DNA from: Candidatus Bathyarchaeia archaeon
GTDB taxonomy: Archaea > Thermoproteota > Bathyarchaeia > Bathyarchaeales > Bathycorpusculaceae
Assembly: GCA_049516875.1 (NCBI GenBank)
Contig: JBEKSS010000009.1
Coordinates: forward strand, 62,833-126,832
Length of the DNA stretch: 64,000 nt
Direction: 5' to 3'
The notes beneath the pieces were generated by a model that ran no database searches, was not told the DNA's origin, and worked only from the letters and a program-made list of their open reading frames with translations. Positions 52 to 61,946 of the stretch are shown here, one piece after another. Every line of letters starts with the position of its first letter. The stretch's first letter is position 1. The position numbers and the translations under genes were made by a program.

Positions 52-331
52 TCTTTCTTCACGTCCGTTGGAATGATGAAACAACGGGTTTAAAGTGTGT
101 CAGCGCGCGCTACGAGTGTCTGGCAAGCAGGGCCCTTATCTGCTCTTCAGTGCTTTTTTTCACCAGACTCGCCACAATATTAGTGAGATGGTCACTAAAT
201 AAACGCTTTTTCCTCATTAAAAGCGCGCGTAAGTCTTATTCGTGCAGCCCCATTTTTCTTGTTTGCTGCAAGAACGCCAAACAGTCAAATAGTCAGAATC
301 CAGTTCTATGCAATGGGACTGTGAGGGAAGA

Positions 332-985
332 ATGCGAAGTGCGAGAGTTGTGTCTTTTGATATGGACGGAACTTTAACCGACATCTCGTTTGCAGATTCC
401 GTGTGGCTGGAGGGAATACCTCGTTTGTACGCCCTTAAGAATGGTCTTGCGTTTGAAGATGCAAAAAACAGTGTGATGAACGAATATAACAAGGTCGGCA
501 GACAGAAGCTTGAATGGTATGATATAAGTTATTGGATAGCCAGGCTGGGCTTGAACGTTTCTCCCAAAGAGGTTTTGAATTCTTATCAACACAGAATCAG
601 GATTTTTCCGGATGCAATTGAGGTTCTGGAGGAGCTTGGGGATAGAGGATTTAGGCTAATCATGGTGACGAATGCCCATAGGGAGTTCGTCGATTTGGAG
701 CTTGAAAAGACGAAGATCATGCAGTATTTTGAACGTGTTTTTTCTCTAACTTCTGATTTTGGACTCGTCAAGAACACGGTTAGCGCTTACATGAAAGTGT
801 GCAACGTTTGCAATGTCTCTCCTGACGAAGTGGTTCACGTGGGTGATGATGAGTGTTTTGATTTTGACGTGCCTAGCAAAATGGGCATGACGGCCTTCTA
901 CCTCGATAGAACAGGTGGACACTCGGGGGAGTTTGTGGTTCGCAGTCTGAAAGAGTTTAGCGGAAAACTCGCAGAGCGTACTTAG
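332..985 (+). CDS. HAD-superfamily hydrolase
   Basis: Motif I FDMDGTL, motif II VTN, motif IV HVGDD..FD; ATG at 332 preferred over 308. Confidence 0.9.
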   Translation: MRSARVVSFDMDGTLTDISFADSVWLEGIPRLYALKNGLAFEDAKNSVMNEYNKVGRQKLEWYDISYWIARLGLNVSPKEVLNSYQHRIRIFPDAIEVLEELGDRGFRLIMVTNAHREFVDLELEKTKIMQYFERVFSLTSDFGLVKNTVSAYMKVCNVCNVSPDEVVHVGDDECFDFDVPSKMGMTAFYLDRTGGHSGEFVVRSLKEFSGKLAERT

Positions 986-1124
986 CGTGCTGAACTGGAT
1001 CGTGCGGTTTTTGATGGTCTTTTGCTGCAAAGCAGCGTTACGTGTGCGTTGCAAACTCGTTTTTTGCGGGGCAGATTGTGATAAGCTAAAATTGTGGTCT
1101 CTAGTTTAGACAAAGGGATGTCTG

Positions 1125-1919
1125 TTGTCGTCTCGACGAAGTCTTGAAAGGTTGAAAGGGAAAGCGCCGCAACTGCTGGTTTTAGCCCTCGTCGCCATTG
1201 TAATTCTAATCATCTTGTTGGAGACCTTGGAAGACACTTTGATCGAGGGAGGCACGTTCAAAGGCACACCTCTTGATATACTGTTGAACGCTGTCATCAT
1301 GCTTACGCGAGACGTTACTGCAGCCGTCTCGTCTTGGGGCTATGCTGGAATCTTCTTGTTGATGTTGCTTGAGGCAAGCTCTCTGCCCGTTCCAAGCGAG
1401 GTTGTACTCCCGTTCTCCGGCTACCTCGTTTCTCTAGGCCAGCTTAACTTGTGGCTAACCATTTTGGTTTCAACTCTTGCAGGAATAACGGGGTCGCTGA
1501 TTGACTACTACGTTGGAATGAAGGGAATAAACCTGCTCACCCGACGGAAAGCTCTGGGCAAACTCCTTCTTAATAAAGCGCGTTTGGAAACGGCCGAGAG
1601 GTGGTTCAGCAAGTACGGCTCCCTCGTTGTGTTTCTGGGCCGCATGATCCCGGGGTTCAGGACGCTGGTGTCTTTTCCAGCGGGGGCGGTAAAAATGTCG
1701 CTGACAAGGTTTATCGCATTCACACTGGCTGGATGTCTAGTCTGGAACGCGTTTCTAACTTACATCGGCGTGTATGTAGGTACTAACTGGCGAGAGGTCG
1801 CTGGTGTATCACACTACATAATCATAGGTGTCGTAGCGGTGATCCTGGTGGCGTTTGTCGTGTTCTTGATCAGAAGAAAAAGGGGAACCTGCGCGCATGC
1901 GTGTTCCGAAAATGGTTAA
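1125..1919 (+). CDS. DedA/SNARE-associated membrane protein; stop codon supplied by the inserted MITE
   Basis: LEASSLPVPSE, GRMIPGFRT and PAG motifs; the last 10 codons lie inside the repeat starting at 1891. Confidence 0.9.
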   Translation: MSSRRSLERLKGKAPQLLVLALVAIVILIILLETLEDTLIEGGTFKGTPLDILLNAVIMLTRDVTAAVSSWGYAGIFLLMLLEASSLPVPSEVVLPFSGYLVSLGQLNLWLTILVSTLAGITGSLIDYYVGMKGINLLTRRKALGKLLLNKARLETAERWFSKYGSLVVFLGRMIPGFRTLVSFPAGAVKMSLTRFIAFTLAGCLVWNAFLTYIGVYVGTNWREVAGVSHYIIIGVVAVILVAFVVFLIRRKRGTCAHACSENG

Positions 1920-2104
1920 AAATGGTATTTATTCTTTTTAGGGCTTTTGGAGGCAGTTTTGAGGCGCGCATCTGTTTTTGACCTACTTGCACTGTCCGTC
2001 TCAACACAGCCAAGACCTACTATCAAGCAAGTCCAAATCAAACGCAGATAGGCAAAAGAAGAATAGAAACCATTTTAGACCAATTTAGGAACAAGCATGC
2101 GCGC
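1891..2104. mobile_element. MITE-like element, copy 1 (family A)
   Basis: Imperfect TIRs GCGCGCATGCGTGTTCCGAAAATGGT...ACCATTTTAGACCAATTTAGGAACAAGCATGCGCGC; non-coding; interior differs from copies 2, 3 and 5. Confidence 0.8.
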
Positions 2105-2106
2105 TA

Positions 2107-3402: not shown

Positions 3403-3639
3403 ATCATCACCTAGAAGCTCATAGTAAGCCCTTCTGGAAATAAAGCTTCGTCAATGGAAACTGTCAACTTAATGGACATTGACTGATTTTGTTTGCAACG
3501 TCTTCTTGAAGCACGCGCGCTGCTTGTTTTTGAACATAAGACCCAGCGCGCGCTTGGAGGCAAGTGTGGCGGATTCATGGTTTTGATTAGTGTTAATAGT
3601 GGTCCTGCTTCTATCTTAAAGCTGTAGTTGGAGGTTCGA

Positions 3640-5869: not shown

Positions 5870-6040
5870 TTCTTAATAGTTCCAACTCTAGTCTCACTCG
5901 TCAAATACCCAACGGCAAAGGCTGACACGTTGTACGTGCCCGTTTTCAGGCCTTCGGAAATACTTTAATGTCCAGAGCTGTTCGTCAAAGCGCCTCTTGA
6001 GCCGTTGTCACCAGTAGCGGATACAATGGCGCCGGCGCGC
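5870..6040 (-). pseudogene. Fragment of a carboxypeptidase-regulatory-like repeat gene, paralogous to 6175..7527
   Basis: Translates GAIVSATGDNGSRGALTNSSGH*SISEGLKTGTYNVSAFAVGYLTSE versus GARVYAEGDNGSGSAITDSSGHYTLTTGLMTGTYNLTTLAYGYIDSE; begins at GCGCGC 6035-6040. Confidence 0.7.
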
Positions 6041-6174
6041 GCTTTGCTTAAGCGTTGTTTGCTTGTTGATGCTTTGATCTTTGCGATAACGGGCGCGCAA
6101 AACAAACAATCATAAATCAGTCCTTGAAGCTGCAATGTAGCGGTCATAAGCCTTTAATACAGAGATCCCAGAAA

Positions 6175-7527
6175 ATGTTCTTCAGGAGGAAAAGCAAATT
6201 GTCTAAGCGGTGGTTGCTAGCAGATGTCCTAATGTTTGCCATAGCTTTAAGCTTCGCAGCTCAAATATGCATCTTCAATACCACAACGAAACAGAATGCC
6301 GTGGGAATCGTCTACGGCGCCAACGGTCCACTCGGAGGCGCGCGGGTGTATGCAGAAGGAGACAACGGCTCAGGATCCGCCATAACCGACAGTTCCGGAC
6401 ACTACACTCTGACTACGGGCCTGATGACTGGGACTTACAACTTGACAACCTTGGCCTACGGGTACATTGACAGCGAAGTAGACTCCGTAAGCGTAACAGT
6501 TGGCCAAACCACATCAGGCGTGAACTTTGACCTACAGCTTTCCGGCGCAATCTCAGGCATAGTCACTGACGCAGTGAGCCAGAGCCCGATCAACGGCACT
6601 GTAATCTTCGCGAACCTTGCAAACGGTTCTGGAACCTTTGGATTTTTCGGCACCACAGGGACTGATGGGAAATACTTCATGGCGACAAACCTGCCAACCG
6701 GAACGTACAACGTCTCAATGGAAATCGCACCAGACGGATATTTCCGTCAAATGACGACGGCAAACGTCGTTGCGGGAGTTGAAACCAAGAATGTAAACCT
6801 TGCCCTAGCAAGATCGGGAATCCTCTCAGGAAAGGTAGCGGCACCAAACGGCACAGGCCTCTTCGACATTGATGTCATAGCTTCTAATGGCACCACGTAC
6901 TTTGGTACTGCCACAACGGATTCATCAGGCAACTACAGGATTGCCACAGGACTGGGAACAGGCACCTACACCGTGGAAGCTTTCGGTGACGGAAACTTCA
7001 CAACGTACACTGGCACTGTGGCGGTTACTGCTGGCCAAGAGACGAGCGGCATAAACATGGAATTAACCCCCATCACGACGCCTCCGACACCTTCGGGCAC
7101 GATAACCGGACGCGTAACAGACCAGAGCAACAACCCTATTAGATTCGCGTCGGTCACGGCCAGTGGGAGCGGCGGCTTCGGTTCAGGCGATACCGACAGC
7201 AACGGCTACTACAACATCTCAAGCGGATTGGGAGACGGAAACGACTACAACGTCACTGCAACGGCATCAGGCTATTATGATGCATCTTATCCAACTCTCG
7301 TCAGTGTCACAGTCGGCCAGACAACACCCAACATCAACATCCAGATGACCGCGCAGCCAGCACAAACCTTCGGAACCATCACCGGCACCGTTACAGGAGC
7401 TTCAAACCCGATTCCAGAGTTTCAGTACCCATTGATGGCAATGCTCTCACTGACACTCGTAGCTGCGGTAGCAGGCAAACTGATGCTCAAAACGAAACGC
7501 CACAAGAACGCGGACAACGCACCATAA
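6175..7527 (+). CDS. Secreted surface protein with four carboxypeptidase-regulatory-like repeats and PEF-CTERM sorting signal
   Basis: N-terminal hydrophobic segment, repeated T..TD..G.Y...TGL.TGTY.V units, C-terminal IPEF + TM helix + basic tail. Confidence 0.85.
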   Translation: MFFRRKSKLSKRWLLADVLMFAIALSFAAQICIFNTTTKQNAVGIVYGANGPLGGARVYAEGDNGSGSAITDSSGHYTLTTGLMTGTYNLTTLAYGYIDSEVDSVSVTVGQTTSGVNFDLQLSGAISGIVTDAVSQSPINGTVIFANLANGSGTFGFFGTTGTDGKYFMATNLPTGTYNVSMEIAPDGYFRQMTTANVVAGVETKNVNLALARSGILSGKVAAPNGTGLFDIDVIASNGTTYFGTATTDSSGNYRIATGLGTGTYTVEAFGDGNFTTYTGTVAVTAGQETSGINMELTPITTPPTPSGTITGRVTDQSNNPIRFASVTASGSGGFGSGDTDSNGYYNISSGLGDGNDYNVTATASGYYDASYPTLVSVTVGQTTPNINIQMTAQPAQTFGTITGTVTGASNPIPEFQYPLMAMLSLTLVAAVAGKLMLKTKRHKNADNAP

Positions 7528-8314
7528 AATCTCTCCTTTTTTTTGTCAAAAACCCTTTCGCATCCAATATGCGACCCTCGTGCCCCTTGTTACAGCCCAA
7601 AAACAGTTCTCTTTCTCAAATTCTTGAAGAATACTTACATCAAACAATAAGTTTCTATCCGAACAGAAGCTGAACAGCATCTTTTTCCACCTAGAAAATT
7701 CAGTACAGACCCCCTTCAAGTTCTCGCAAGGGCCCGGAGCAGGGGCTTGGAGGAGAAAGGAGAGTGAAAAAGCTTTTCAACTTCTCCGGGCCTTCACGAG
7801 TCCATCTGGAGGGATGGGGCGTTGCTGATTCGTCTCAGCTTCCGATGTTCCCATTGCTCGTGAGCTATTAAGGGGTTTTTCAGAATTAAGTCCAAATCCT
7901 TTCCAAATCTTTTTTACTTCACTTGTGGTTGCAGGTGGCCTTACAAATGTTGAGTAAAAGTGGCTGGAAGGAGTCGGATCCATCCGTACAGCTTGTGCTC
8001 ATCGTCTTCGGTCTCCAACAGTTCCATGATTTCAGGGCAGTGGTAGAGGAATTTTAACCCCTTGTCGGTTGTCTTGGACACAACTGTCTCGTCCAACGAT
8101 GCCTGTCCAGCAGTTTGGTGTCAATCACAAGTTTGAGGTACCCGTTCAGCATAAGGTAACTCAGCCCTGCCTTCCACGTTATATTTACTCTTCAACGCGC
8201 CGTCACGCGCCATTTCGCGCGCGCTTACGATTTGAAGGCGAGAGATCATTAGCAGCGAAGAAACTTTAAGACCTGCGCGCCAACTCTTTTTCAGTGTTGG
8301 AGGAAATCTGACGC

Positions 8315-12497: not shown

Positions 12498-12737
12498 CGC
12501 GTGCACGACAGTGCTGCTCAATCCAGCTCAAGACATCGTCCTTCGGCGCGCGCTACAAGTCCGATGACTCAGGGTCCGTACGGCGGCACCTACTCTGTCA
12601 TGCAGACCAGTCTGGCAACAATCTTGTTTCTTGGTTTGGTGCTTTCTTTCCTCGGTGTCCTTATCGCAGAATTCGCAAGTAAAATTCGGAAGAGAGTAAT
12701 GTCCTAACCCAGGAAACGCGCGTCATGCCAACCACAA

Positions 12738-14987: not shown

Positions 14988-15237
14988 AAGGAACTAGCGC
15001 CGTGGTCACTTTGGAGATTTTGGACCGCAAAAGGCACGAGAGTTTCCGTTGTAGTTATGCTTAAAGCTTATCGAGCGCGCACTAGAAACTGGGAAGTTAT
15101 AGTCTTATTACTCCGTTCCTATTGAACTGTAGTCACGAGGCCCTTGGCTTGCTTCAGGTCTGAGTAATGAACTGTAAGAGTGTGCAAACGTCATGAGGCA
15201 TCTGGGAAACGAAAGGAATGGTTAGCGGTGATGGCTT

Positions 15238-15888: not shown

Positions 15889-16187
15889 GCACAGCCCGCG
15901 CCTATTCAAGCTACATTCGTCCAAAGCGCGCTAAATCCTTTGTAATAATCGCGCGCGTGGAAAATTCCAAACAGACTGGGTTTTCATGATCTGCATGGTG
16001 GATGCTTCCAATGAATCCAATGATATGTTTCCAGATGGCATGCGTGCACATGCTTGGCTATATGGGGCCATATCATTTAGTACCAGTTAAAACCACTTAC
16101 TGCTTTACGTTTTTTATTCCATAGTGTTCATGTATCTTAGGGTGCTCCCAAAACTATTTAAATGCTCCAATTTACAGGTCCAACTGG

Positions 16188-41471: not shown

Positions 41472-41530
41472 TTGTTAGTGCGTTAATAAATCGCGCGCGG
41501 TTTGGAAAATGGGTCGCGCATGCTGTGAAA

Positions 41531-41830
41531 TCAAAGAGGGATTGGCATAGGCATGCCGTTTCTTGCTTCCTCAACTATCGGGAGCACTTGTTTCAGTTCT
41601 CTGAAGTACTTGAGCACGGTTATGCCTCTTGGAGTTATGGCGAATACTGTTCTGCTTTTTCCAACGGTCCTTTCCTCAATCAGGTTTTGCTTAGTCAGAA
41701 AGTCCAAGTATTCTTTCAGGACTTTGCAGTTGACGTTCGCTTTATACATTACATGCGTCAGTTTCAATGGTCCACGACGGGATAGCACTTGAAGAATGTC
41801 TACATACATCTCGAGTTTGGAACGTCTCAT
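41531..41830 (-). CDS. Archaeal winged-helix (HTH_45-like) regulator
   Basis: MRRSKLE..VDIL, LTHVMYKANVN, ITPRG. Confidence 0.85.
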   Translation of the reverse strand: MRRSKLEMYVDILQVLSRRGPLKLTHVMYKANVNCKVLKEYLDFLTKQNLIEERTVGKSRTVFAITPRGITVLKYFRELKQVLPIVEEARNGMPMPIPL

Positions 41831-42052
41831 AATTCTACCCTTCGCGTATGTGTCTTCCACAAGTTGGAACAAGGGGTATAAACCGTTTATGAATCAGAAA
41901 CTATGGTTCATAATCACATATTGCCGCGCCAACAGAAGTTTTCATCGCATCTTTGCAACATGTTTCTGTTCATACTGAACCCCTGGACAACCTGAACTTG
42001 GAATAGTTATTGCAAATATGTATTTCGAAACCGTATTTTGACAGCGCGCACT

Positions 42053-42220: not shown

Positions 42221-42372
42221 ACACGCACAGAGATCTCAACAATCCCAAAAAGCTTCTGGAGGAATCCGACAAGAAACGTCGGCAATTCAGGAGCAGAGAA
42301 CCATCCAAGCATAGGCGCGCGCATTTTTTATAGACGTAAGTACAAAGTCTAACGCGTTGAGGAGGATGAATT

Positions 42373-42504
42373 GTGCCAAAAGGTAAGAAACAGAAAGCTA
42401 CAGATCATAAACAGCACATGAAATTGCAGAGAGAAAAGGAACTGAAAAGGAAAGAGAAACGAAACACTCAACTCCCTGCAGAATACACCAAAGGCAAAGA
42501 ATAG
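42373..42504 (+). CDS. 43-aa basic protein
   Basis: GGAGG RBS; MPKGKKQKATDHKQHMKLQREKELKRK...; its stop overlaps the MITE start. Confidence 0.45.
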   Translation: MPKGKKQKATDHKQHMKLQREKELKRKEKRNTQLPAEYTKGKE

Positions 42505-42684
42505 CGCGCATGCGTGTTCCTAAAATGGTCAAAAATGGCCATAATTCCGTTTTTCACATTTCTGCCAGTGCTTAAGACAGTTACTCAAAGAAATCAAGAA
42601 CAGATACGAAGCCCACAACCTTCCTTAAATCATGAAAGGCGAATAAAAACCATTTTAGGCCAATTTCGGAACAAGCATGCGCGC
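42504..42684. mobile_element. MITE family A, copy 3
   Basis: Near-identical to 41063-41246; TA on both flanks. Confidence 0.85.
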
Positions 42685-42976: not shown

Positions 42977-43137
42977 GGGTTTAGGGTTTGGGGGTAAAGT
43001 TTTATCCCAAAACCCATCTACTTCTTTCTATTTCTTATTCTCTCTTTCTTTCTCTTACTACCCACATATAAACAAGCAAAAACAAACAAAAACAAGCAAA
43101 AACAAACAAACAAAAAACACCTTTACAGACGCGCGCA
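42977..43137 (-). repeat. Family B element, inverted (core 42990-43008) with GA-rich and CAAA-repeat flank
   Basis: Inverted homolog of 23938-24054; ends at CGCGCGC. Confidence 0.75.
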
Positions 43138-43664
43138 GCAAGTAGAACTTATTAGGTTCTTCGAATGTCTCACTAGATAGGTGTTCAAGAAGTGCAGATG
43201 ATTGCGATTTTTTTTTCCTCTGTTTGTAATCTCGATATTGGCATTTCTGATAGCCACGGTGTTGCTGTGGCGAAGGGGAAAAACCATAGAAGCTCTCTTA
43301 GTCTGGAACTCTGTTTTTGTATTTCATTGCACTGATATTGCTTTTCAGATAAGTGCGTGCGCGCTAAGTTAAGTTACCTAATCTGGTCATAAAACCTTCT
43401 GAACGGCGTGCTTATTCTGTTTCTTCGTCCCAATCTTCATCATCGGATTCTGTTTCTTCATCCCAATTTTCAGCTTCTTCTATCATAGTTATTCACCACC
43501 TTCATTCTCAGCGAAGCACAAGCATAGTCAACTAGCATTAAACTTTGTGAATACGAAATATTCATCAAGAATGAAGATTTCAAGCCAGCTATCCCACGAC
43601 AGTTAACAAGAAGGCAAATCCCACAAGGAGTTAACAGTTACCATGCGCACGTGTCCCAGTGTTT

Positions 43665-44477: not shown

Positions 44478-45360
44478 AAACTTCTTCCTCCAAACATTAG
44501 TAGAATACTTTACGTATTTCAAAATTGTCTCTCTCAATCTGATTTTTCTCGCGTGCAGGAAATTGCGTTAGGCGCGCGGGCAGCTGATTTTGATTCAAAC
44601 GTAAAAAATCCAAGAGCACATGTATGTTCGCTAGATACCGAAAGAAAACTTTGAATGTAAGTTTTATATCGTCTTGTATCACTCAATAAAGGTAAGGTGC
44701 GTCATGCGCAGTCCTTTCCCCGTTAATTTGCATACAACTTTTGTTTGCATGACGCATCTCAACAATTCCGAACGAGCCATACGCACTTTCTGAATTTTCC
44801 GTTTCGAGCCCATAACAGATTTTTCTTTTGATGCCTATGGATAGATTTGATAAATGGCAAGTCCGTTCGGAAAAACAGACAAAAAGTCACTTTTTTCTCG
44901 TATTCCTCTTTGAGTCATGGTTTGCTGGGTTTTTTCGGCGTGTAAATTGTCCAATATCCATTTTTTTCAAAGTCTTTCCTTTGTAACTTATGTTCCTTAC
45001 GAATGCTTTCTAAAAGACAAAAAGAGGCTTCATCGAGTCTGGTTCTCTTAATCTTTAATGCACAGCCTTCATACTTATTATCATCTGGATTTGGGATAGT
45101 TAATCGCTTGATTTCATTTCCATTCTTATCTTTAAGATGGCACTCAAGAAGTTTCTTCCTTACCTCATGTACTTCTTTAAATCCAACATAATCCCTAGTT
45201 TGTCTTCTGTTGTTGTGCCGATTTAAAGATTTAAAGAAATTTGGAACTAAGCGCGCTTAGCGCGCGCTTCTCTTGCTTGAGGGACGGCAAATTTGATCGC
45301 ACAAGTTCTAGTGCGTCAAGGCTAAAAGAAGGGTGCGCATCATAGGTCTTTGGGAAGGAT

Positions 45361-45837: not shown

Positions 45838-46000
45838 GCGCGCAGGTGTGTTCCTAAATTCCCTTTTCAACTGTGATAGAGTTCTGTCGCGCCTTCCGAA
45901 CCGTGCCCCCCGTGCCCCAAGACATTTCGCCACCCATAGACGAAGCAAAGCCAGAAGCATAAGCTATCTCGCAAACGAATTTAGAAACAGGCATGCGCGC
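45838..46000. mobile_element. MITE family A, divergent copy 4
   Basis: TA-GCGCGCAGGTGTGTTCCTAAATTC...GAATTTAGAAACAGGCATGCGCGC; unrelated interior. Confidence 0.7.
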
Positions 46001-48502: not shown

Positions 48503-48822
48503 TTCGTGAAAAGCAAGCGACTACGCACATCTTGGATAGTCAACTATCCAAATATCGCATATTTTGGACAACACTCTAACCGACAAGTCGCGGTTCTATG
48601 TCCCGAATTGCACGCTCCGACCATGTTCTTCGAATTTTCACGATTAACGTGATTTCAGGTTCATTACGTATAAGGAACAAACAATAGTTAACACGCTGAT
48701 AGTAGCGAACTTCTGCACCCTGCCACACTATTTGTTCAGAACATAACACGCCTACAAGGTCAAACCTAACGCGCGCTCAGGCGGCCGCTTCACGTTTCGC
48801 ATCCGGCACTCTCGGCAGCTTA

Positions 48823-49003
48823 GCGCGTATGCGTGTTCCTAAAATGGTCAAAAATGGCCATAATTCCGTTTTTCACATTTCTGCCAGTGCTTAAGACAGT
48901 TACTCAAAGAAATCAAGAACAGACACGAAGCCCAAAGCCGTCCCTAGATCATGAAGGGCGAATAAAAACCATTTTAGGCCAATTTCGGAACAAGCATGCG
49001 CGC
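48823..49003. mobile_element. MITE family A, copy 5
   Basis: Near-identical to 41063-41246; TA on both flanks. Confidence 0.85.
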
Positions 49004-49905: not shown

Positions 49906-50002
49906 ACAGAACCTAGAGGAAACGCTCAGAAGACAAAAAAATCTTTAATCCGCACAGCAACAGAAAACAAGGCTAATTTTTTTCCGTATTTCGAGCGCGC
50001 GC

Positions 50003-50050: not shown

Positions 50051-50291
50051 AACCAACCAAATTTGACGTGGCGCTGACAAACAATGTAGGTGTGAGAGCT
50101 AATACCTACATTGTTTTAGTGGAGAGCAGAGCATTAGAGCTGTTATCCTCATTTCGTCTGTTGATGTACGTTCGTCGATGGATGTTGCAAAAACCTCCGC
50201 AGTACCAAGAATCTGCATGCAATCATTGAAAACGTTATTCATGAAAAGGCTTTTCAGATACTTAATGGTACTTAGATTTCAGTCTGATAGC

Positions 50292-53200
50292 ATGTCAAAC
50301 ACATCTAGCGTCGATGCAATCCTGACTGAGGCTAACATAAAAGAAAAAGAGTATAATTGGCTAGGCGCGGCTGAGACTTACGCGAAAGGATTGGACTCAA
50401 TATCAGCACAGAACTTCTCAAGCTCAGGCGATCTTCACGAGCGTTTAGGCTATGCCTTTCGCAAAGCAGCGATGCAGGCCGAAGATGTGAACGAGTTCAA
50501 GAACAGTATGAACAAGGCTGCTGTTCACTATGGTAAGGCTCTTGAGGCTTATGAAAGGATCAGTGACTCTGAGACGGCGAACGCCAAAGGTCTTCGATGT
50601 GATGCTGCCAAAGCTTACGTTGAGCATTGGTTGGCGTCTGACAGTTTTGAAAAGAAGAAATGGTTGGATGAATGTTGGAAGCTCGCAACTGGGAGTATGC
50701 GAACATTCGAAAAGGGAGAGGAACGAAGTGAATTTGTGAAAACATACGTCCAACTTTCAGACGCAGCGATTTTTCTGTTTACTCGCGAACCCGATTTCAA
50801 ATCCCGCGAAAAGGTAATACAAGAGGCAGTGGAGTCAGGCGAGAAGGCAATAGAATTCCTCTCAACTTCGGGAGATGCTTGCCAACTTGCGATGGCTTAC
50901 GCGCGAACCGTTGTTTTTCTAGGAGTTTTCAGCTATAACTTCAGAGACATTAATGAAAGGGAGAAATATCGACAGGAAGGCCTCAACTATTGGGGCAAGG
51001 CCAAGCAGCTTTCTGAAGAAATAGCGATGACCGAGTCTGTGTACCCTGTTTTTGGAGGCCAAGTTTTCTTCGGCTTGGAAGGCGCCGACGAAGCGTTTGA
51101 AAACTGTACGAAAGCATTAGAGTACGGCAGAAAGATGAATGACAAGTTCATTATCGGTTGCGCATTAGATTGGCTCGTCTACCACACTGCCTGGAAGCTT
51201 CCGGGAACCGATGATCCAGTTGAGAAAGAACGCGCCATTGAAAGGTGTCTGAAATATGCAGAGGAATCACTGTGCGAGCTCAGCAAGGTGCCCTTCGTAA
51301 GCCCCCGCGGCGATCTTGCCTGGACCAAATCAATTGAAACCATGCGTCTCCTTCTTCAACATGACGTTGAGACTGATCTGAAGAAAAAAAGAGTCTTAGA
51401 TGAAGAGGCTTTCCAGTGGGGTCTGCGCAATCGAAAAATGTGGGAAGAATCTGGTTATCCGGAAATCATGATGAGTTGGTATGGTGGGGCAGCCATGCTT
51501 CGCCAAAGGCTCGCCAAATTCGAAACAGACCCTGCGGATAGAAAAAAAGGTCTTGAAGAAGCCCTCGCTTACATAAATAAAGCCATAGGAATTCAAGAGG
51601 GACTTGTCCCCCTTCAATACTGGAACATTGGTATCTCGCGAAGTTCGTTGGGAAACGTAGAATCTGAACTCGCTGAAGTGACCGAGGACTCGGAGAAAAA
51701 GAAGGCTTTGCTTAGAGCCGCACTGGCCGACAAGCAGAAAGCCATAGAATTGTGCATCAGAGAATTGACGTACATGACGAAGAAAGGCTCGGGAACCTCT
51801 CTCTTCGCAACCGTAGGAGCACTGCAATATGGATATGCACACGCCCTTGTCCGTTTGTACGAGTTAACGGGCGAAAAGGAGCTTTTGAAAAAAGCGGTAC
51901 AGAGTTATGACGCTTCAACCGAATCCTATCAAAAGCTCAGCTTGATGAGTAGAATAGCGGAGAATTGTTGGAGAAGAGCACAAGTATATGACAAGCTTGG
52001 AGAGCATTTGGCAGCCTCTCAGGATTTTGAGTGCGCAGCACGGAGCTACGCTTCGGCATTAGAGAAGTTCCCACAGCTCAAAGCCTTCTACAATGACCAC
52101 GCCCTGTACATGCAGGCTTGGAGCGAAATTGAAAAAGCAAGATTTCACCATCAGAAACAAGAATATAACCTGGCAGAAGAGCATTTTGACAAAGCCGCCG
52201 GTCTTCACAAATCTTTGAAACGATGGAACTATCTCGCACCAAACTATTCCGCTTGGGCAAAGCTTGACGAAGCAGAAGAACTGAGCAGAAAAGAGAACAG
52301 TGAAGAAGCTCTTCAGGCCTTCGAAACAGCTTCTGCGCTTTTGGAGGAAACCAGTAAGTCTCTGGAGAACCAGTTGCCAACGATCGAGGACGCCGAGGAA
52401 AAAGAGATGGCAGCAGAAATGTTGAAGGCTACAGGCCTGAGACATCAATACTGCGCAGCACGAGTCGCAGTTGAAGAAGCCAAGATCTTTGACAAGAAGG
52501 GAGATCACTTGTCAAGCTCCGAGAAGTACAGTTCGGCAGCTGAAATCCTTGAGGGTATACAGGAGGCTGTAGAAACAGAGCGGGACAAAAAGGAGTTCAA
52601 ACTTATCGCAACACTCTCTCAAGCTTGGGCAAAGATGACGTTGGCTGAAGCCGAGGAATCGCCAGGTTTGTACGCGGAAGCATCTCAGCTCTTTGAGAAG
52701 GCCAAAGAACTGAGCCCTAACGAGAAAGCAAAGACGCTAGCTTTAGGACACAGTCGCTTCTGCAGAGCACTTGAAGCTGGAATGGAATTTTCCGACACGG
52801 CGGACGAAAAACTCCACAATATCGCCGTTCAGCAATTGGAAAGCGCTGCAAAATACTACGTGAAAGCTGGCATTCAGAGCGCTTCGGAATATGCCAAAGC
52901 AACCGAGCTGCTTCTAGACGCTTACTCAAACATCAACAACGCAAAGAAAGAAGCTGACCCTGAAAGAAAAACAAAACTGTTTGCGATGGCCCAAAAAATC
53001 CTACAAACTTCCGCGGGCTCTTTCATGAAAGCTGAACATCCAGAAAAGAGAGAGCAGGTTCTGAGACTCCTTGACAAAGTGAAAGAAGAACAAGAATTGG
53101 CTATGTCCCTCAGTGAGGTATTACACACTCCTGCAATTGTCTCTACAACAACCGCATTCAGTACGCCTACTCCGAATCATGAGAATGCAGTGGGTATTGA

Positions 53201-53606
53201 GAAGTTTGAGAACGCCAACATACAGGCAAACATTATTTCCCGCCAAAAACAGCTAAACGTGGGTGAAAATTTGGACTTAGAGATAGAGCTCGTCAATGCA
53301 GGAAAAGGGCCTGCGCTGTTGATCAAAATCACCGAGCTCATTCCGAAAGGCTTCGAATTGGCTGAAAATCCCGAAGCCTACAGAGTGGAGGACAGCTACT
53401 TGAACATGAAGGGAAAACGAGTTGACCCCTTGAAGACCGTAGAAGTGAAGCTTAAGCTCAAGCCGAAAGTTCAAGGCGAGTTCTCACTCAAACCCACGGT
53501 ACTGTATCTCGACGAAAATGGACAGTACAAGTCAAATCAGCCTGAGCCGCTGACTTTAACGGTCACGGAGCTTGGAATCAAGGGCTGGCTCAAAGGAGAA
53601 AGATGA
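50292..53606 (+). CDS. Large TPR-like helical repeat protein with C-terminal Ig-like domain
   Basis: About 1000 aa of Ala-rich helical repeats; C-terminal L.VGE...LEIELVNAGK...PTVLY. Confidence 0.8.
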   Translation: MSNTSSVDAILTEANIKEKEYNWLGAAETYAKGLDSISAQNFSSSGDLHERLGYAFRKAAMQAEDVNEFKNSMNKAAVHYGKALEAYERISDSETANAKGLRCDAAKAYVEHWLASDSFEKKKWLDECWKLATGSMRTFEKGEERSEFVKTYVQLSDAAIFLFTREPDFKSREKVIQEAVESGEKAIEFLSTSGDACQLAMAYARTVVFLGVFSYNFRDINEREKYRQEGLNYWGKAKQLSEEIAMTESVYPVFGGQVFFGLEGADEAFENCTKALEYGRKMNDKFIIGCALDWLVYHTAWKLPGTDDPVEKERAIERCLKYAEESLCELSKVPFVSPRGDLAWTKSIETMRLLLQHDVETDLKKKRVLDEEAFQWGLRNRKMWEESGYPEIMMSWYGGAAMLRQRLAKFETDPADRKKGLEEALAYINKAIGIQEGLVPLQYWNIGISRSSLGNVESELAEVTEDSEKKKALLRAALADKQKAIELCIRELTYMTKKGSGTSLFATVGALQYGYAHALVRLYELTGEKELLKKAVQSYDASTESYQKLSLMSRIAENCWRRAQVYDKLGEHLAASQDFECAARSYASALEKFPQLKAFYNDHALYMQAWSEIEKARFHHQKQEYNLAEEHFDKAAGLHKSLKRWNYLAPNYSAWAKLDEAEELSRKENSEEALQAFETASALLEETSKSLENQLPTIEDAEEKEMAAEMLKATGLRHQYCAARVAVEEAKIFDKKGDHLSSSEKYSSAAEILEGIQEAVETERDKKEFKLIATLSQAWAKMTLAEAEESPGLYAEASQLFEKAKELSPNEKAKTLALGHSRFCRALEAGMEFSDTADEKLHNIAVQQLESAAKYYVKAGIQSASEYAKATELLLDAYSNINNAKKEADPERKTKLFAMAQKILQTSAGSFMKAEHPEKREQVLRLLDKVKEEQELAMSLSEVLHTPAIVSTTTAFSTPTPNHENAVGIEKFENANIQANIISRQKQLNVGENLDLEIELVNAGKGPALLIKITELIPKGFELAENPEAYRVEDSYLNMKGKRVDPLKTVEVKLKLKPKVQGEFSLKPTVLYLDENGQYKSNQPEPLTLTVTELGIKGWLKGER

Positions 53607-53742
53607 CCGAAAACTAGTTTTGCGGAATCTGAGGGCGCGCTATTCCTTCACACTCTGCGATCGCGCTAAGCGCGCGCGTGATAAACAACACTTTTAAGTT
53701 ATTTGATGCTAATTAAGAAAGCAATTCCGAGTTGTTGAAACC

Positions 53743-56613: not shown

Positions 56614-56712
56614 GGAGAACAAGAATTAGAGACGCTGATAAACGAGCGCGCGCGCACGCTTTCTGGAAAATTTTAAATTGAGTTTCGCACCTAATGGGAA
56701 GTGGGTGGAAGT

Positions 56713-57195: not shown

Positions 57196-57252
57196 GATGC
57201 GAAACAAAAAAAGAGAGCGCGCGCGCCATATCTCTCTCGCGCGCTTCTTATT

Positions 57253-57942: not shown

Positions 57943-58141
57943 AGCGATTATTCCCCGAAGTTATTGGTGAAACTATCCATAAAAGACTTCGCGCGCTGAG
58001 GACTATTGTCTGAGAAAAGACCGTGAAAGACAAAGGACCAGATTCACTTTAACCTCAGACTCTCTCTATTCCTCTGGAATGTTGTATTGACAAACTCTTT
58101 TTAACCTTTCATAACAGCCGCCTATTTTGTGGCGAACAAGA

Positions 58142-58327
58142 ATGGCGAACCCTTTGTCCGATTGTTGCTTGACAAGACTCTGTGACATGTGCGGCAAATA
58201 CATTCAGGGAGCAAACTACCATTGCCCAAAATGCGATATTTGCATTTGCTTCGGTTGTGGAGTGAGAATGCAGAGCAAAGAGAATTATCCGCTTAAATGC
58301 CCAATGTGCGACGAGAAACTTCAATAG
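58142..58327 (+). CDS. Small Cys-rich zinc-finger protein
   Basis: CDMC, CPKC, CFGC, CPMC. Confidence 0.65.
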   Translation: MANPLSDCCLTRLCDMCGKYIQGANYHCPKCDICICFGCGVRMQSKENYPLKCPMCDEKLQ

Positions 58328-58359
58328 CGCGCGCTTGGAGACTGGCTGTTCACATCCGT

Positions 58360-59388
58360 TTAACCTTTGCGTGGAAAGAGGTAAGCCACGACCGCAACTA
58401 CAACACTCACAATCAAGGCAATGTCTTTCCAGTGTTCGTCTAGGAATTTCCTTGCGGATTTCTTGGAGGGCAATGCGATTGCTTGGCGGTAGAAACTTCT
58501 CTTGGACTCTTGAATGGACTCATCTATGAGGGGTCTGTTCTCTGTGGTGGCAACTTCAAGGCCAGTGCTGGCTACAAACCACTTCAGCAAAGTCTCGCCA
58601 ATTGTCTTGATTTCCTTAGGATCCGGTCTCATTGGAATATCATTTACTACCGAATGCATGACCAAGACTCCATCTGTTCTACCATCTGCTGGTCGGAGGA
58701 GGAATTGCAGGACAGATTTCTTGTTTCCGTAGGTTTTGACAAAGTATAGGCTATTTGACGTTTTTCTGCTTAGTGTTAGGTTAAAATCTTCTTCGAGCTT
58801 CTTCAGTTGCTCCATTACTATGTTCACATCAGCATTTGCAGTAAAACTCATCGCAGAACCGTTCAGCACAAGTCGGTACCCACACTTTTTGACAATTGGA
58901 ATAGCGAGGGCAACAGAAAATGCGACAAGGAAGCCTAAGAAAACTGAAACTCCTAGTGCGGAGCTTATCCTCTCATTGCTTTGATAAGTTGTAAATGCTG
59001 TGTGCGTTGGGTCGAAGTAAAGAATCATGGTTTCAAAGAACATGAAAGAAAAAACGTAAATGCGCAAGCCATCGATTGTAAAGCGCGGGGCTCTAATCCA
59101 CAAAGCTGGAGGAAAAGCGGAGATGAGCGGAATGACAAAAAGCGTAGATATGCCAGTTTCTCCAAAGGACAGCGAAGTTGAGCTGAAGATGTATGCAAGG
59201 AAATAAATTAGGCACGCAATCGCCAGTCCATATGCTAAGCCAAAACTGATAGAAAATAAGCGATGGTGCGAGAAAAGCCAGTTTGACTTTTGCAATTGCA
59301 GTTTTTCCTCTAGATTAATTTTCTCTTCTTTAAGAATCTTCACTTCCTCTTTGATGCTGTCCATGTCGTCTTTATTCTTATCTTTCAA
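58360..59388 (-). CDS. Membrane protein (coiled coil + about 4 TM + soluble domain + C-terminal TM)
   Basis: Hydrophobicity pattern; long ORF. Confidence 0.7.
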   Translation of the reverse strand: MKDKNKDDMDSIKEEVKILKEEKINLEEKLQLQKSNWLFSHHRLFSISFGLAYGLAIACLIYFLAYIFSSTSLSFGETGISTLFVIPLISAFPPALWIRAPRFTIDGLRIYVFSFMFFETMILYFDPTHTAFTTYQSNERISSALGVSVFLGFLVAFSVALAIPIVKKCGYRLVLNGSAMSFTANADVNIVMEQLKKLEEDFNLTLSRKTSNSLYFVKTYGNKKSVLQFLLRPADGRTDGVLVMHSVVNDIPMRPDPKEIKTIGETLLKWFVASTGLEVATTENRPLIDESIQESKRSFYRQAIALPSKKSARKFLDEHWKDIALIVSVVVAVVAYLFPRKG

Positions 59389-59545
59389 ATTTTATCACTT
59401 CTGATTCTTGTTTCTGTCAGGAACGATACTATCTTGCTGGAATTGCGCTGAATAAACCTATTTTGCAAACGCCCTTCATATCTGTAGTTTGAATCTTGCT
59501 TATTTAGACTTGTGCTGGCACATGCTGAATAATTGCTAGCGCGCG

Positions 59546-59656
59546 CTTATTCGAATCCAAAAGCGTCGATTAATGTGACGGTCGGGAGAAAGTTATCGGC
59601 ATACCAGCCGTCGTTAAGGCTCTTGGTCGTGCCAAGGGTGATATTGCCGAAGTCCA
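59546..59656 (-). pseudogene. Start-less 3' gene fragment between two GCGCGCGC sites
   Basis: Reads LDFGNITLGTTKSLNDGWYADNFLPTVTLIDAFGFE*. Confidence 0.4.
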
Positions 59657-59694
59657 GCGCGCGCCAGTATTCATTAAACGTTAGAGTGCGCGCA

Positions 59695-61940: not shown

Positions 61941-61946
61941 TTTTCA

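Follow-up and report, generated by a model that had tools for sequence, protein, structure and literature searches.

GCGCGC runs of a bathyarchaeal genus: mostly probable termini or excision remnants of genus-only mobile elements

Why does one short palindrome, GCGCGC, recur between the genes of a peat archaeon (Candidatus Bathyarchaeia), and do its copies belong to a system for shuffling gene cassettes? The stretch analysed here, referred to as the window, comprises 64,000 nucleotides and contains 89 overlapping GCGCGC matches, whereas 100 dinucleotide-preserving shuffles gave a mean of 10.92 (standard deviation 4.35, maximum 23) and none reached 89. Merging of the GCGCGC and (GC)n matches yields 62 runs, 54 noncoding and eight coding according to our own crude gene caller, which predicts 2363 genes and assigns 79.7% of the genome and 67.3% of the window to coding DNA; this split varies with the choice of start codon, and the runs at 22409..22414, (GC)3, and 23016..23023, (GC)4, are noncoding per the caller while lying in the 5'-extended part of the longest ORFs (17711-22495 and 22492-23094). 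A first-pass annotation, which proposed an integron-like system, had estimated about 50 intergenic copies and roughly half a dozen coding ones, and these figures agree with ours. It also placed the motif outside operons, and indeed the four-gene end-joining block at 27317-31111 and the transporter block at 9244-12400 have no runs inside. Genome-wide, noncoding DNA has 707 runs (1.43 per kb) and coding DNA 258 (0.13 per kb). The coding count is that expected from a first-order Markov model (336 matches observed, 358 expected), while GCGCGC is the noncoding word with the highest over-representation, 12.8-fold for the 6-mer and 81-fold for the 8-mer. The noncoding runs comprise 381 (GC)3, 285 (GC)4, 39 (GC)5 and two (GC)6. 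They are clustered, often in pairs.

The excess is genome-wide and genus-specific. Five genomes of the genus (G000 to G004) contain 447, 168, 460, 253 and 646 copies of (GC)4. Among 26 other relatives searched, 23 have 0-14, the range also seen in most sister genera within the family, and the remaining three have 30, 53 and 227; the genome with 227 also holds 209 copies of the reversed control word. In alignments of G002 and G004, eight noncoding runs are common to both genomes and nine are found in a single genome, at a noncoding identity of 91.6%. The neutral expectation for a retained hexamer is 0.916^6 = 0.59, and the runs appear to evolve about neutrally. Point differences within the aligned blocks are mostly CpG transitions.

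The distribution along the genome is uneven, with a mean of 5.6 runs per 20-kb bin, a variance of 26.6, and 12 of 110 bins empty. Two run-free bins were compared with relatives: three relatives align with one of them as an uninterrupted collinear block, and in the other collinearity extends over the first half. Run-dense bins are mosaics, the pieces of which are 92-98% identical to scattered contigs of relatives, as against 79-88% for core DNA. The runs clump in these mosaic regions and are missing from the collinear core, and are not equally frequent between conserved housekeeping genes. A tie to variable mosaic DNA and rearrangement junctions, and not a housekeeping signal, is supported.

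Where does the motif come from? A clade of IS5/IS1182-type insertion sequences (IS) of about 1.1 kb, together with derived MITEs of 160-480 bp, has GCGCGC as the outermost hexamer of its inverted repeats. This agrees with the earlier description of GCGCGC as the terminus of MITE family A: of 44 MITE termini detected in the genome, 39 carry exactly (GC)3 and 29 are flanked by TA, and among nine paired copies (18 loci fetched from G004, G002 and G001) TA flanks 14 of 18 ends. In G002:C7, a 1,082-bp element carries an intact 328-aa ORF between 28-nt inverted repeats (GCGCGCATGCGTGTTCCTAAAT..). The transposases, which score under NCBIfam cut-offs, would belong to the IS5/IS1182 superfamily by virtue of their DUF772 and DDE_Tnp_1 domains (E 5e-12 and E 2e-22 in a split copy in G002:C1). 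A second IS type, with repeats GCGCGCTGGCTTGTCCCTAAATT, is found in G000:C7, G001:C6 and G003:C2. IS copies are under-assembled in metagenome bins, and every genome compared is one; full-length copies are TA-flanked on only three of eight sides. The repeat word GCGCGCATGCNTGTTCC, with at most one mismatch, has 41, 5, 31, 4 and 59 matches in the five genus genomes and none in the 26 others, save one 1-mismatch match. In contrast to the GCGCGC ends of the genus, a related IS in the motif-poor G023 ends in CGTGCYAGGG...

Five MITE copies are present in the window. Four are of family A: 1891..2104 (ends GCGCGCATGCGTGTTCC... and ...GGAACAAGCATGCGCGC, with an internal (GC)3 at 1964-1969); 41063..41246 and 42504..42684, both flanked by TA on each side; and 48823..49003, whose left end has decayed to GCGCGT and whose right one, GCGCGC-TA, is intact. 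The copy at 45838..46000 has variant ends (GCGCGCAGGTGTGTTCC and GCGCGCATGCCTGTTTC). The MITEs sit at synteny breaks themselves: the left flank of 1891..2104 matches G004:C22 and the right flank G004:C16, synteny with L157 (a 94% relative) ends exactly at the left TA of 41063..41246, and homology to G002:C16 ends at the left GCGCGC of 42504..42684. In a contig of sequencing run X5, the right end of the fourth family A copy, at 49003, is joined run to run to 33503, which lies in a pair TA-(GC)3 and TA-(GC)4, 40 bp apart (33463..33510); X5 also has a contig joint from 36766 to 41247.

Three allele states were observed at element sites. Occupied sites read TA-GCGCGC...GCGCGC-TA. Where G004:C1 has TA|GCGCGC-MITE, G002:C5 and G003:C1 have a plain TA without a GC run. 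The MITE-free sequence TA-GCGCGCGC-TA was seen twice, in a 99.4%-identical contig of sequencing run X8 that lacks the MITE at 41063..41246, and in G000:C12 compared with G004:C33. The never-occupied site is plain TA at one locus and would mostly be so across the family, and TA-GCGCGCGC-TA may represent an excision scar, if the MITE-free state is the derived one at these two loci. The palindrome reported earlier at 23936-23947 is indeed present, as a (GC)4 at 23938..23945 with TA on both sides (TAGCGCGCGCTA), and is the identical word to the two MITE-free alleles.

The balance of this evidence tilts modestly towards the runs being transposon ends and excision scars, and not an integron-like system; the majority of copies would probably be termini or remnants of the genus-only elements. 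Insertion would take place mostly at TA, as shown for one site and extrapolated to the family. Upon loss of an element, both TA copies and four bases of each end would stay behind at the donor site, giving TA-GCGC-GCGC-TA; a length spectrum that stops at about (GC)4 fits two such 4-base remnants, as does the predominance of (GC)4 (23, against nine (GC)3) among runs with TA on both sides. We know of no documented case of 4-base retention per end by IS5-type transposases. The account of Stowaway/mariner excision in PMC4561436 describes sites where both copies of the target-site duplication (TSD) persist with small remnants of the element termini and where repair is mainly by non-homologous end joining (NHEJ), a product that the proposed scar resembles. 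Insertion-tolerant intergenic DNA would accumulate element ends and solo (GC)3-(GC)4 scars over time, while genes and tightly packed conserved operons would stay run-free because selection removes insertions there. Elements bordering acquired or rearranged segments may promote deletions, inversions and transfers, and the runs would mark junctions for this reason; the element would depart later and its scar remain. Most runs would then be passive traces of mobile-element traffic that decay neutrally and are not read by the cell. The near-neutral conservation, the clustering in mosaic DNA, the enrichment of runs at breakpoints and the derived deletion at 39097 (both described below) count in favour of this reading. 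MITE excision footprints had been listed as an alternative to the integron-like system, and this idea fits best once extended to autonomous IS and element termini. The suggested link to Ku/LigD end-joining is weak: Ku is encoded in G000, G002, G004 and the motif-poor G010, and was not found in the motif-rich G003 or in G001 (77% complete).

Several observations count against the scar reading. Simple insert-and-excise cycles at TA predict far more runs with TA on both sides than the 33 of 707 noncoding runs observed (another 249 have TA on one side), a shortfall that is softened, not removed, by the incomplete TA flanking of the IS copies. The two flanks are independent (23 (GC)4 with TA on both sides, 19.0 expected). 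A recognisable terminal repeat adjoins just 47 of 965 runs genome-wide, and G003 has 253 (GC)4 yet only four repeat-word matches. In four differences between G002 and G004 the short allele has a GC palindrome (ATAGCGCGCGCT, CGCTCGCGCGC, GCACGCGTGC and TGCGCGC..) and the long allele (158-425 bp) has no element remnant. Finally, a 576-bp single-gene segment of G002, without inverted repeats, is exactly centred in the GCGC|GCGC of G004 with no duplication.

Such alleles support a different order of events, in which (GC)3-4 runs come first and the DNA breaks there, through a non-B structure or a palindrome-reading nuclease. Fragments, IS and MITEs among them, would enter the runs without target duplication, and resection would explain run-less alleles. 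Besides the 576-bp segment, the MITE at 41063 is centred without duplication in the 8-mer of the X8 allele, and in five short-versus-long differences the run is in the short allele and missing from one or both ends of the long one. The clustering and pairing of runs also fit. A further case is the (GC)4 at 39097..39104, which marks a derived deletion of about 190-213 nt. The small gene at 39068..39328 (minus strand), whose reading frame runs into it, encodes 86 aa, whereas the intact form in L153 and L159 has 111 aa and the full-length protein is kept in 23 of 29 relatives; of the four gene breaks proposed earlier, the one examined, at 39097, is a real truncation, and the deletion begins at a TCGCGCGTG present in the long allele, at its left breakpoint. 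The Pfam domains scanned in neighbouring genes are full length. However, one insertion site is a plain TA in two outgroup genomes, TA flanks MITE ends at 66-78% per side and solo runs at only about 22-25%, the source of some 700 neutrally decaying runs is left without a reason, and target duplication is the norm for DDE elements with inverted repeats of 28-38 nt. A C5 methyltransferase was searched for and not found in the five genus genomes, N4/N6 methyltransferases compared across genomes have no genus pattern, and no nuclease was identified. We consider that pre-existing fragile or target sites are an unlikely source of the pattern.

Are the runs instead the crossover sites of a dedicated, integron-like cassette system? 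In this proposal modules bounded by the 6-8-bp core are excised, inverted and inserted by a recombinase or transposase that reads it; in one version, the IS transposase uses solo scars as pseudo-ends. Breakpoints are enriched at runs. Between G002 and G004, 14 of 92 breakpoints are within 3 bp of a run, about nine times the 1.7% of random noncoding positions, and ten of 23 structural events have such a breakpoint (binomial P ~7e-7). In the window, 54 homology-block ends were listed by hand from comparisons with same-genus genomes, outside 20001-26999 and 56001-64000 and leaving aside MITE-only matches, paralogue matches with an identity under about 74%, and repeats within 17.7-20 kb. Ten of the 54 are within 5 bp of a run, compared to 4.2% of random noncoding positions and two of 94 called gene ends; within 60 bp the figures are 20 of 54, 27.6% and 19 of 94. 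The assertion that the motif marks nearly every module junction is thus overstated, although enrichment at close range stands.

Run-bounded modules range from 0.5 to 16 kb, and the runs earlier placed at 27253, 33624/36771 and 49995/53635 are present, with homology breaks at or near them. An 11.4-kb stretch at 15930-27289, absent from G004 and G002 (where the empty site reads ..CCAAAGCGCC|TGTTC..), has two (GC)3 runs at its left edge (15926..15956) and a (GC)4 at its right edge (27253..27260), just outside the end-joining block, whose genes (27317..31111, minus strand; Ku, and a LigD-like ligase and phosphoesterase) are 83-84% identical and syntenic in those genomes. The metal module at 33630..36770 (P-type ATPase, minus strand; 94-95% identical in G004 and G002) lies between a (GC)3 at 33624..33629, where G004 reads GCACGC, and a (GC)3-TA at 36771..36776; a (GC)3 within the ATPase gene (34687..34692) is kept in G004, G002 and G003. 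At the right edge, G003 carries a (GC)4 10 bp past the corresponding stop codon, in other surroundings, and in G004 and G002 the module is placed elsewhere, next to the 3' end of a tRNA, and this end is partly repeated there. A single-gene module encoding a winged-helix protein (41503..42040, minus strand), with three paralogues in the genome, has (GC)3 runs 5 bp to its left (41493..41498) and 4 bp to its right (42044..42049), whereas its 95% identical counterpart in G004:C14 has motif-free flanks. A gene for a 1142-aa protein (50224..53608, plus strand), 92% identical in G003 only, has a (GC)4 upstream (49995..50002) and a (GC)3-TA after it (53635..53640), and GCGCGC lies 26 nt past the homology break in both genomes. 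The (GC)4 at 53670..53677 starts a module of 0.6-0.85 kb (53670-54278), the counterpart of which in G004:C13 is 610 bp long with A-GCGCGCGC-G at each side. Run-bounded segments are also found between G004 and G002 at C2 52851 and 84175, and a segment at about 6171-7888, inverted relative to both genomes, has one edge at a (GC)4 and (GC)3 pair (6035/6093; 6035..6098) and the other near a second (8217/8275; 8217..8280). The contig joints in X5 point the same way.

Set against this, the flanks of the core show no conservation or palindromy past two bases on either side, and the same module may be motif-edged in one genome and motif-free in another. In 13 of the 23 events no breakpoint has a run within 3 bp, and other events show repeats and duplications of their own. 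No tyrosine recombinase is encoded on the window's contig, C9 (ten Phage_integrase matches lie elsewhere in the genome), and no Y1 transposase was found in the genome. To our knowledge, known site-specific recombinases, like DDE transposases when they bind, need sites longer than 6-8 bases. The cassette system first proposed is therefore unsupported and quite improbable.

A functional signal, whether for a chromatin or insulator protein particular to the genus or for 3'-end formation/termination, seems more doubtful still. Convergent spacers have 2.02 runs per kb and divergent ones 1.18, with an excess in the 40 nt following stop codons and a depletion in the 40 nt preceding starts. However, the depletion is also expected of insertion scars if selection removes promoter hits, only 20-29% of spacers carry a run, and no fixed spacing to stop codons was found; the empty bins, two of which were collinear with relatives over all or the first half of their length, the near-neutral conservation and the scarcity in sister genera do not suit a signal either. 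Least probable of all is a HIP1-like iterated palindrome arising from methylation-dependent mismatch-repair bias: the motif is a GC-rich, lineage-specific palindrome, strongly over-represented in noncoding DNA, and most point differences are CpG transitions, but such a bias would also reach coding DNA, where there is no excess, the genus genomes yielded no C5 methyltransferase, and close genomes differ at the edges of replaced segments and by multi-base replacements, not stepwise.

Other runs of the window accompany smaller differences. A (GC)3 and a (GC)4, 31 bp apart (3515..3553), lie in a spacer that is wholly different in G000, G002 and G004. A (GC)4-TA at 12546..12553 lies in about 220 bp absent from G004 and G002, which have GCGCGC directly after the preceding stop codon instead. 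The (GC)3 at 15075..15080 bounds on the right some 85 bp that G004 does not have, and homology to L154, a 92% relative, stops inside the (GC)4 at 40883..40890. Runs within called genes are (GC)3 at 6338..6343, 17510..17515 and 36926..36931 (a methyltransferase gene), and (GC)4 in an ORF at 37850..37857. Noncoding (GC)3 runs lie at 223..228, 26894..26899 (per the caller), 43131..43136, 43359..43364 (followed by TA), 44572..44577, 48771..48776 (47 bp left of a MITE) and 57991..57996. Noncoding (GC)4 runs lie at 103..110 (TA on the right), 23300..23307, 24936..24943, 25066..25073, 26023..26030, 42315..42322, and, preceded by TA, 58327..58334 and 59539..59546; a noncoding (GC)5 is found at 56646..56655. 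Pairs are formed by (GC)3-TTA-(GC)4, with the runs 3 bp apart (45251..45267), by (GC)5 and (GC)3, 13 bp apart (57217..57244), and by (GC)4 and (GC)3, 24 bp apart (59657..59693).

How strong is the excess of GCGCGC, and where does it lie? The source genome (G000), of which the window is C9:62833-126832, is a metagenome bin of 2.43 Mb with 47% G+C and 20 contigs, and the data sets that hold the window sequence are metagenomes from peat, wetland and freshwater sediment. Genes were called with a crude codon-usage ORF picker (2363 genes, 79.7% coding), on which all coding and noncoding figures depend. The window contains 89 overlapping matches to GCGCGC, compared with 10.9 ± 4.4 in dinucleotide-preserving shuffles; these form 62 separate runs of alternating GC, written (GC)n, of which 54 are noncoding though 67% of the window is called coding. 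The sites named in the first-pass annotation were found as it had described them, including the 12-base palindrome at 23936-23947, the MITE ends and the operons free of runs. Across the whole genome, 707 runs are noncoding and 258 are coding (1.43 versus 0.13 per kb), and every sizeable contig has some. The noncoding bias first noticed by eye holds against a Markov background: the excess is real and significant, the 6-mer being over-represented 12.8-fold and GCGCGCGC 81-fold in noncoding DNA, where they are the top over-represented words, while coding DNA stays at its base-composition expectation (336 GCGCGC observed, 358.5 expected at order 1). Noncoding runs comprise 381 (GC)3, 285 (GC)4, 39 (GC)5 and 2 (GC)6.

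The excess is a trait of the genus. The five same-genus genomes (G000-G004) hold 447, 168, 460, 253 and 646 copies of GCGCGCGC, and 23 of the 26 other genomes from the family and order have 0-14; the exceptions are G018 with 227, G024 with 53 and G013 with 30, and in G018 the 227 copies stand beside 209 copies of the reversed control word. A universal archaeal promoter or terminator role for the runs is thereby excluded. According to a survey of prokaryotes (PMC4060949), alternating-GC words are suppressed in general, which on that account makes this genus an outlier.

The palindrome is the terminus of mobile elements. MITE family A consists of short non-autonomous elements with GCGCGC ends (for example window 41063-41246). 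It has 44 detectable termini in G000, 39 of which start with exactly (GC)3 and 29 of which are flanked by TA; in nine paired copies, detected among 18 loci fetched from G004, G002 and G001, TA was found at 14 of 18 ends. The family comprises 22 bracketed copies of 72-480 bp, which are short, multi-copy and without an ORF, and have inverted repeats in common with an autonomous element: their repeat is that of an insertion sequence (IS) on G002 contig C7. Two further MITE candidates in the fetched G002 DNA proved to be coding false positives.

A pattern search with a word of the terminal repeat (the repeat word) detected pairs about 1.07 kb apart in G002. The IS on G002:C7 is 1,082 bp long, with 28-nt inverted repeats (GCGCGCATGCGTGTTCCTAAAT..) and an intact ORF of 328 aa; in another G002 copy, on C1, the transposase is split into a DUF772 ORF (PF05598, E 5.4e-12) and a DDE_Tnp_1 ORF (PF01609, E 1.7e-22, profile positions 8-199 of 200, G002:C1 ORF2). 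A second IS type, on G000:C7, G001:C6 and G003:C2, has a transposase 44-50% identical to the first and repeats reading GCGCGCTGGCTTGTCCCTAAATT. The arms of the full-length copies (G000:C7, G001:C6, G002:C7 and G003:C2) measure 23-38 nt, are 74-100% complementary and lie 1026-1067 nt apart. The length of about 1.1 kb, the single transposase gene (328 aa, or two ORFs), the DUF772 and DDE_Tnp_1 domains and the 23-38-nt terminal repeats all resemble the IS5 and IS1182 groups. However, the termini here are the palindrome GCGCGC, and the repeat word is limited to one genus among the 31 genomes searched. The nearest NCBIfam models are IS1182 (142.1 bits, cut-off 270) and IS5_4 (102.8 bits, cut-off 140); since both types score under these curated thresholds, the elements are divergent relatives, placed only at the level of the IS5/IS1182 superfamily.

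The repeat word has 41, 5, 31, 4 and 59 matches in G000 to G004, respectively, and none in the other 26 genomes except one chance match with one mismatch. A related IS in the motif-poor genome G023 ends in CGTGCYAGGG.., and a distant relative in G005 reads TA-CCGCGCAGGC...GCCTGCGCGC-TA. The shared termini and the co-occurrence within the genus thus identify the palindrome as the tip of a genus-specific IS clade. No multi-copy transposase emerged from an all-against-all comparison of the called G000 proteins, in which the top families were GNAT acetyltransferases, TBP, Alba-like proteins and MFS transporters. An IS630-type DDE_3 transposase (Tc1/mariner/IS630) was rejected as partner of the MITEs: PF13358 has no match in G000-G003, and the single copy, on G004:C58, has no GCGCGC repeats. 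This contig (L134, 1927 bp) repeats its start at its end, so is circular or tandem, and could represent contamination or an independent element.

How could a transposon tip be written into a genome hundreds of times? Three allele states are seen. At one locus, G002:C5 and G003:C1 read ..CACC(C)TA followed directly by AAAAAGG.., a plain TA free of GC runs, where G004:C1 has ..CACCGTA joined to the GCGCGC end of a MITE; the former is the never-occupied site. The occupied state is TA-GCGCGC...GCGCGC-TA. The element-free state occurs twice: a contig of metagenome data set X8, 99.4% identical to the window, spans 41064 to 41241 and reads TA-GCGCGCGC-TA, and G000:C12 reads ..GAGTTA-GCGCGCGC-TAAAC.. 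where G004:C33 carries a MITE (left flank 90% identical). No orthologous site of the latter MITE was found in G002, G003 or G001.

On balance we lean towards reading the runs as ends and excision scars of this genus-specific IS/MITE clade that build up neutrally in mobile DNA tolerant of insertions. Insertion of an element and its subsequent loss would write the palindromic tip into noncoding DNA as a (GC)4 scar; the TA(GC)4TA alleles would then be derived from the occupied state, with four bases presumably retained from each element end. Because the element ends are themselves palindromic, all such scars read as one word and build a genome-wide iterated palindrome. Among runs with TA on both sides, 23 are (GC)4 and 9 are (GC)3, and the footprint structure TA-GCGCGCGC-TA would explain both this dominance and the drop in run length past (GC)4. 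A GCGC target with a 4-bp duplication is disfavoured by the plain TA of the never-occupied site. Loss of the element through microhomology of its terminal (GC)3 predicts (GC)3 as the commonest product between TAs, in contrast to the 9 against 23 observed and to the two element-free alleles, which are both (GC)4.

The elements resemble Stowaway and mariner elements in being short, non-autonomous, TA-flanked and bounded by inverted repeats. As described in PMC4561436, a mariner/Stowaway footprint retains the two target copies with a few bases from either end of the element, sealed by NHEJ, which matches the TA-GCGC-GCGC-TA of the two alleles here. They differ in their transposase, which is of the DUF772 and DDE_Tnp_1 type and not Tc1/mariner/IS630, and in that flanking by TA is not strict.

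Which share of the roughly 700 noncoding runs would have arisen as scars? A recognisable repeat lies beside only 47 of the 965 runs, and just 33 of the 707 noncoding runs have TA on both sides, the two sides being statistically independent. If every run were a clean scar of insertion and excision at TA, several times more TA-TA sites would be expected. The target rule is evidently loose, since full-length IS copies are TA-flanked on just 3 of 8 sides, yet a gap in TA-TA sites still remains. Segments between nearby runs fall into 17 families in 58 of 369 cases, about 21 show inverted repeats, and most pairs of runs bracket no repeat. TAG stop codons were dismissed as the source of the TA flanks, as a called stop accounts for only 12 of the 367 sides flanked by TA.

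The runs in G000 have no fixed distance to genes; their density is 2.0 per kb in convergent spacers and 1.2 per kb in divergent ones, they are common in the first 40 nt past stops and scarce in the 40 nt ahead of starts, and only 20-29% of spacers carry one. Just outside the core, T and then A are favoured (T in 50% at +1); otherwise, nothing around it is conserved or palindromic, and no extended palindrome or hairpin was found, flank complementarity at ±1 to ±15 being 0.24-0.32, the background level. Rfam gave no match at gathering thresholds in the window or contig C18.

Are the runs maintained? G002 and G004 are 94-95% identical, and about 430 kb was fetched from them, of which 116 kb was aligned. 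Noncoding identity in these alignments is 91.6%, and the 17 noncoding runs, a small sample, divide into 8 shared and 9 found in a single genome, a shared fraction near the neutral value of 0.916^6 = 0.59. These alignments give no indication that the runs are required by the cell. New runs did not appear as clean small insertions in alignable DNA (0 of 9 indels of at least 4 bp hold one); runs that differ between the two genomes lie at the borders of replaced segments or arise as replacements of several bases.

The runs are strongly clumped, with a mean of 5.6 per 20-kb bin, a variance of 26.6 and 12 of 110 bins empty. Two empty bins, two dense bins and the window were compared with three or four same-genus genomes. 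The empty bin at 40-60 kb of contig C3 is a single collinear block, 81-88% identical to its relatives. The window and both dense bins (C14:40-60 kb and C4:40-60 kb) are each a mosaic, made of pieces of 0.2-4.7 kb. Many of these pieces match scattered contigs of relatives, often small ones, at 92-98% identity, which is higher than in core DNA; they were therefore exchanged recently. In the other empty bin, C5:20-40 kb, the first 10 kb is collinear and the remainder is specific to G000 and without runs, which counts against a simple rule that variable DNA is motif-rich. This stretch of about 10 kb (C5:29900-40000; L130, 9853-20000) holds no GCGCGC run and, one weak match aside, has no counterpart in G002, G003 or G004; lineage-specific DNA is therefore not always motif-rich.

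The link between runs and junctions is real. In the window, 10 of 54 hand-listed ends of homology blocks lie within 5 bp of a run. The same holds for 4.2% of noncoding positions drawn at random and for 2 of the 94 ends of called genes. G002 and G004 show 23 structural differences of 20 bp or more, with 92 breakpoints in all; 14 of these are no more than 3 bp from a run, whereas random noncoding positions come that close in 1.7% of cases. At least one breakpoint coincides with a run in 10 of the 23 events, where 6.5% per event is expected (binomial P ~7e-7). The first-pass annotation had asked whether synteny breaks map to the motif: the enrichment bears this out in part, but in 13 of the 23 events no breakpoint has a run, and duplications or repeats of their own mark several events. 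One of the four gene break points that it had listed, at 39097, turned out to be a truncation. The (GC)4 run there lies where an ORF of 86 aa diverges from a homologue of 111 aa (two metagenome contigs, 88-90% identical). The long form is covered to 95-100% by 23 of 29 database relatives, and forms of 71-86 aa match the window; since most relatives have the long form, the deletion in the window allele (about 190-213 nt) is derived, and the run lies where its ends meet. In the long allele, TCGCGCGTG is already present at the left breakpoint.

Whole modules give further examples. The 11.4-kb stretch at 15930-27289 is absent from G004 and G002 and has runs at both edges, the empty site reading CCAAAGCGCC followed by TGTTC. 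G004 and G002 both carry the metal-ATPase module of 33624-36767 at 94-95% identity, but beside a tRNA; no tRNA was found in the window. The module from 53670 is edged on both sides by A-GCGCGCGC-G in G004:C13. One and the same module can be motif-flanked in one genome and not in another. A single IS clade marks, and probably drives, the mosaic part of the genome in this uncultured archaeal genus.

An alternative, which we regard as unlikely, sees the runs as points of breakage or entry and not as scars. In four differences between G002 and G004, a segment of 158-425 bp stands against a short GC palindrome with no element remnant, and the spacers at these filler events differ in each of G000, G002 and G004. 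Moreover, a 576-bp segment with a DsrE-like gene and no inverted repeats lies exactly between the halves of a GCGC-GCGC site of G004. These cases lend some weight to that alternative, and to the bolder idea that scars can still serve as ends. Still less probable, and in our judgement a long shot, is the proposal that solo (GC)3-4 runs remain active as a minimal 6-8-bp cassette-exchange system born of transposon scars. Each run being a self-complementary copy of the tip, a transposase or end joining would take any two of them as compatible ends, and a gene or block between two runs could be excised, inverted or inserted at another run. Such activity would account for the 576-bp segment, the run-bounded modules, run-to-run contig joints and the GC-palindrome fillers at deletion junctions. 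If it is true, scars that still act as ends would constitute a new, very small mechanism of cassette exchange.

Known systems of repeated short sequences fit less well; tests of their defining features place the present system outside integrons, REP/RAYT systems and HIPs of the cyanobacterial type. HIP1 is also frequent inside genes, and has been reported at deletion borders. In Elhai 2015 (PMC4390886), HIPs (HIP1 = GCGATCGC; cyanobacteria) are tied to cognate methyltransferases, with a repair bias proposed as their maker. The runs are likewise a lineage-specific, GC-rich palindrome with hundreds of copies per genome, but their excess is only noncoding, the word is a transposon terminus and no C5 methyltransferase was found: PF00145 has no match above the cut-off in the five same-genus genomes, with one sub-threshold match in G002 (E 7.8e-4, 19.4 bits). 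A BssHII-like m5C restriction-modification system is unsupported for the same reason. Methyltransferases of PF01555 (N6_N4) are present in 28 of the 31 genomes, and their occurrence does not follow the genus. REPs are imperfect palindromes of 20-40 bp. They share with the runs an extragenic, lineage-specific distribution of hundreds of copies, as singlets and pairs and often past convergent genes; in contrast, only 6-8 bases are shared among the runs, and G000 has no Y1 transposase.

The integron-like mechanism of the first-pass annotation found no support. Single genes or small modules are indeed edged by a repeated short sequence and vary between close genomes, but there is no attC-type imperfect inverted repeat of 55-140 bp and no adjacent integrase (PF00589 has 10 matches in G000, none of them on the window contig C9). 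Genes between runs in the window lie on both strands, some modules carry their own upstream spacer, and the edge motif is not kept between genomes. Nor was any nuclease, methyltransferase or recombinase found that tracks the motif, a check which the first-pass annotation had proposed. Ku was rejected as a correlate, being present in G010 with 7 (GC)4 and not found in G003 with 253. It was found in only 4 of 31 genomes (G000, G002 and G004, three of the five of the genus, and G010 from another genus), so the end-joining operon is patchily distributed.

Accumulated excision scars are familiar from plants and animals. We found no literature report of them at such a scale in a prokaryote, and literature searches on the motif between archaeal genes, on footprints of MITEs in archaea and on insertion sequences of Bathyarchaeota gave no description of the phenomenon. 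We know of no settled explanation for the cyanobacterial HIPs. PMC4390886 offers no more than a model. A palindromic transposon tip that is inserted and lost, and so writes one word hundreds of times, offers a testable origin for a highly iterated palindrome and suggests a route worth checking for the cyanobacterial HIPs. In practice, accessory DNA in these metagenome bins could be mapped cheaply from the density of runs, and the TA(GC)4TA word could mark past occupancy by an element.

Several further observations concern the variable DNA. The 11.4-kb stretch includes, at 16188-22495, a gene of the exosortase/archaeosortase kind (EpsH, E 7e-28) and, next to it, a gene for a protein of 1594 aa with internal repeats and no Pfam match. 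In G004:C2:25941-32082 (L003) and G002:C5:230405-236541 (L004), the metal-ATPase module adjoins the 3' end of the tRNA, followed by a partial copy; this is the pattern of a putative integrated element with a tRNA gene as attachment site. Contigs of data set X5 cover window 33001-53000 at 200-600-fold word depth, with the metal module, the large gene and the MITE flanks rearranged (for example, 43010 joined to 50213 with 15 letters between, and 33061 to 43312 with 11 letters between); this sample includes a close relative that is more abundant and has its island rearranged. Contigs of other data sets end at 46014-46049 and 50025-50060. Low-complexity stretches of the CACTCACAC or GTGTGTGG type recur next to several runs (window 42050-42260, 50003-50030 and 53641-53665; also L095 and G000:C1:47900), together with the word GGGG(T/C)AAAGTTTTATCCC, and are probably another repeat family. 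An insertion of 1,483 bp in G002:C5 relative to G004:C2 (local position 82814) has inverted repeats of about 30 nt (GGTTCTGTTAACTTGTC...) and a 9-bp direct duplication (CAGTTTGTC), and is a different transposon with no relation to the motif.

Two other words are repeated in G000. The word TTGCGGAAAAGTTATAGC(T/C)GAA lies upstream, and at times also downstream, of six paralogous GNAT acetyltransferase genes (C15:34200-37100, C4:14300-15100, C1:47900, C10:85300 and C4:170000-170800), and looks like a shared promoter or a small gene-borne repeat. A second palindrome, GAGTACTC, is counted 96 times on both strands of noncoding DNA against 8.9 expected, a 10.8-fold excess, and its noncoding density is 10.7-fold that of coding DNA.
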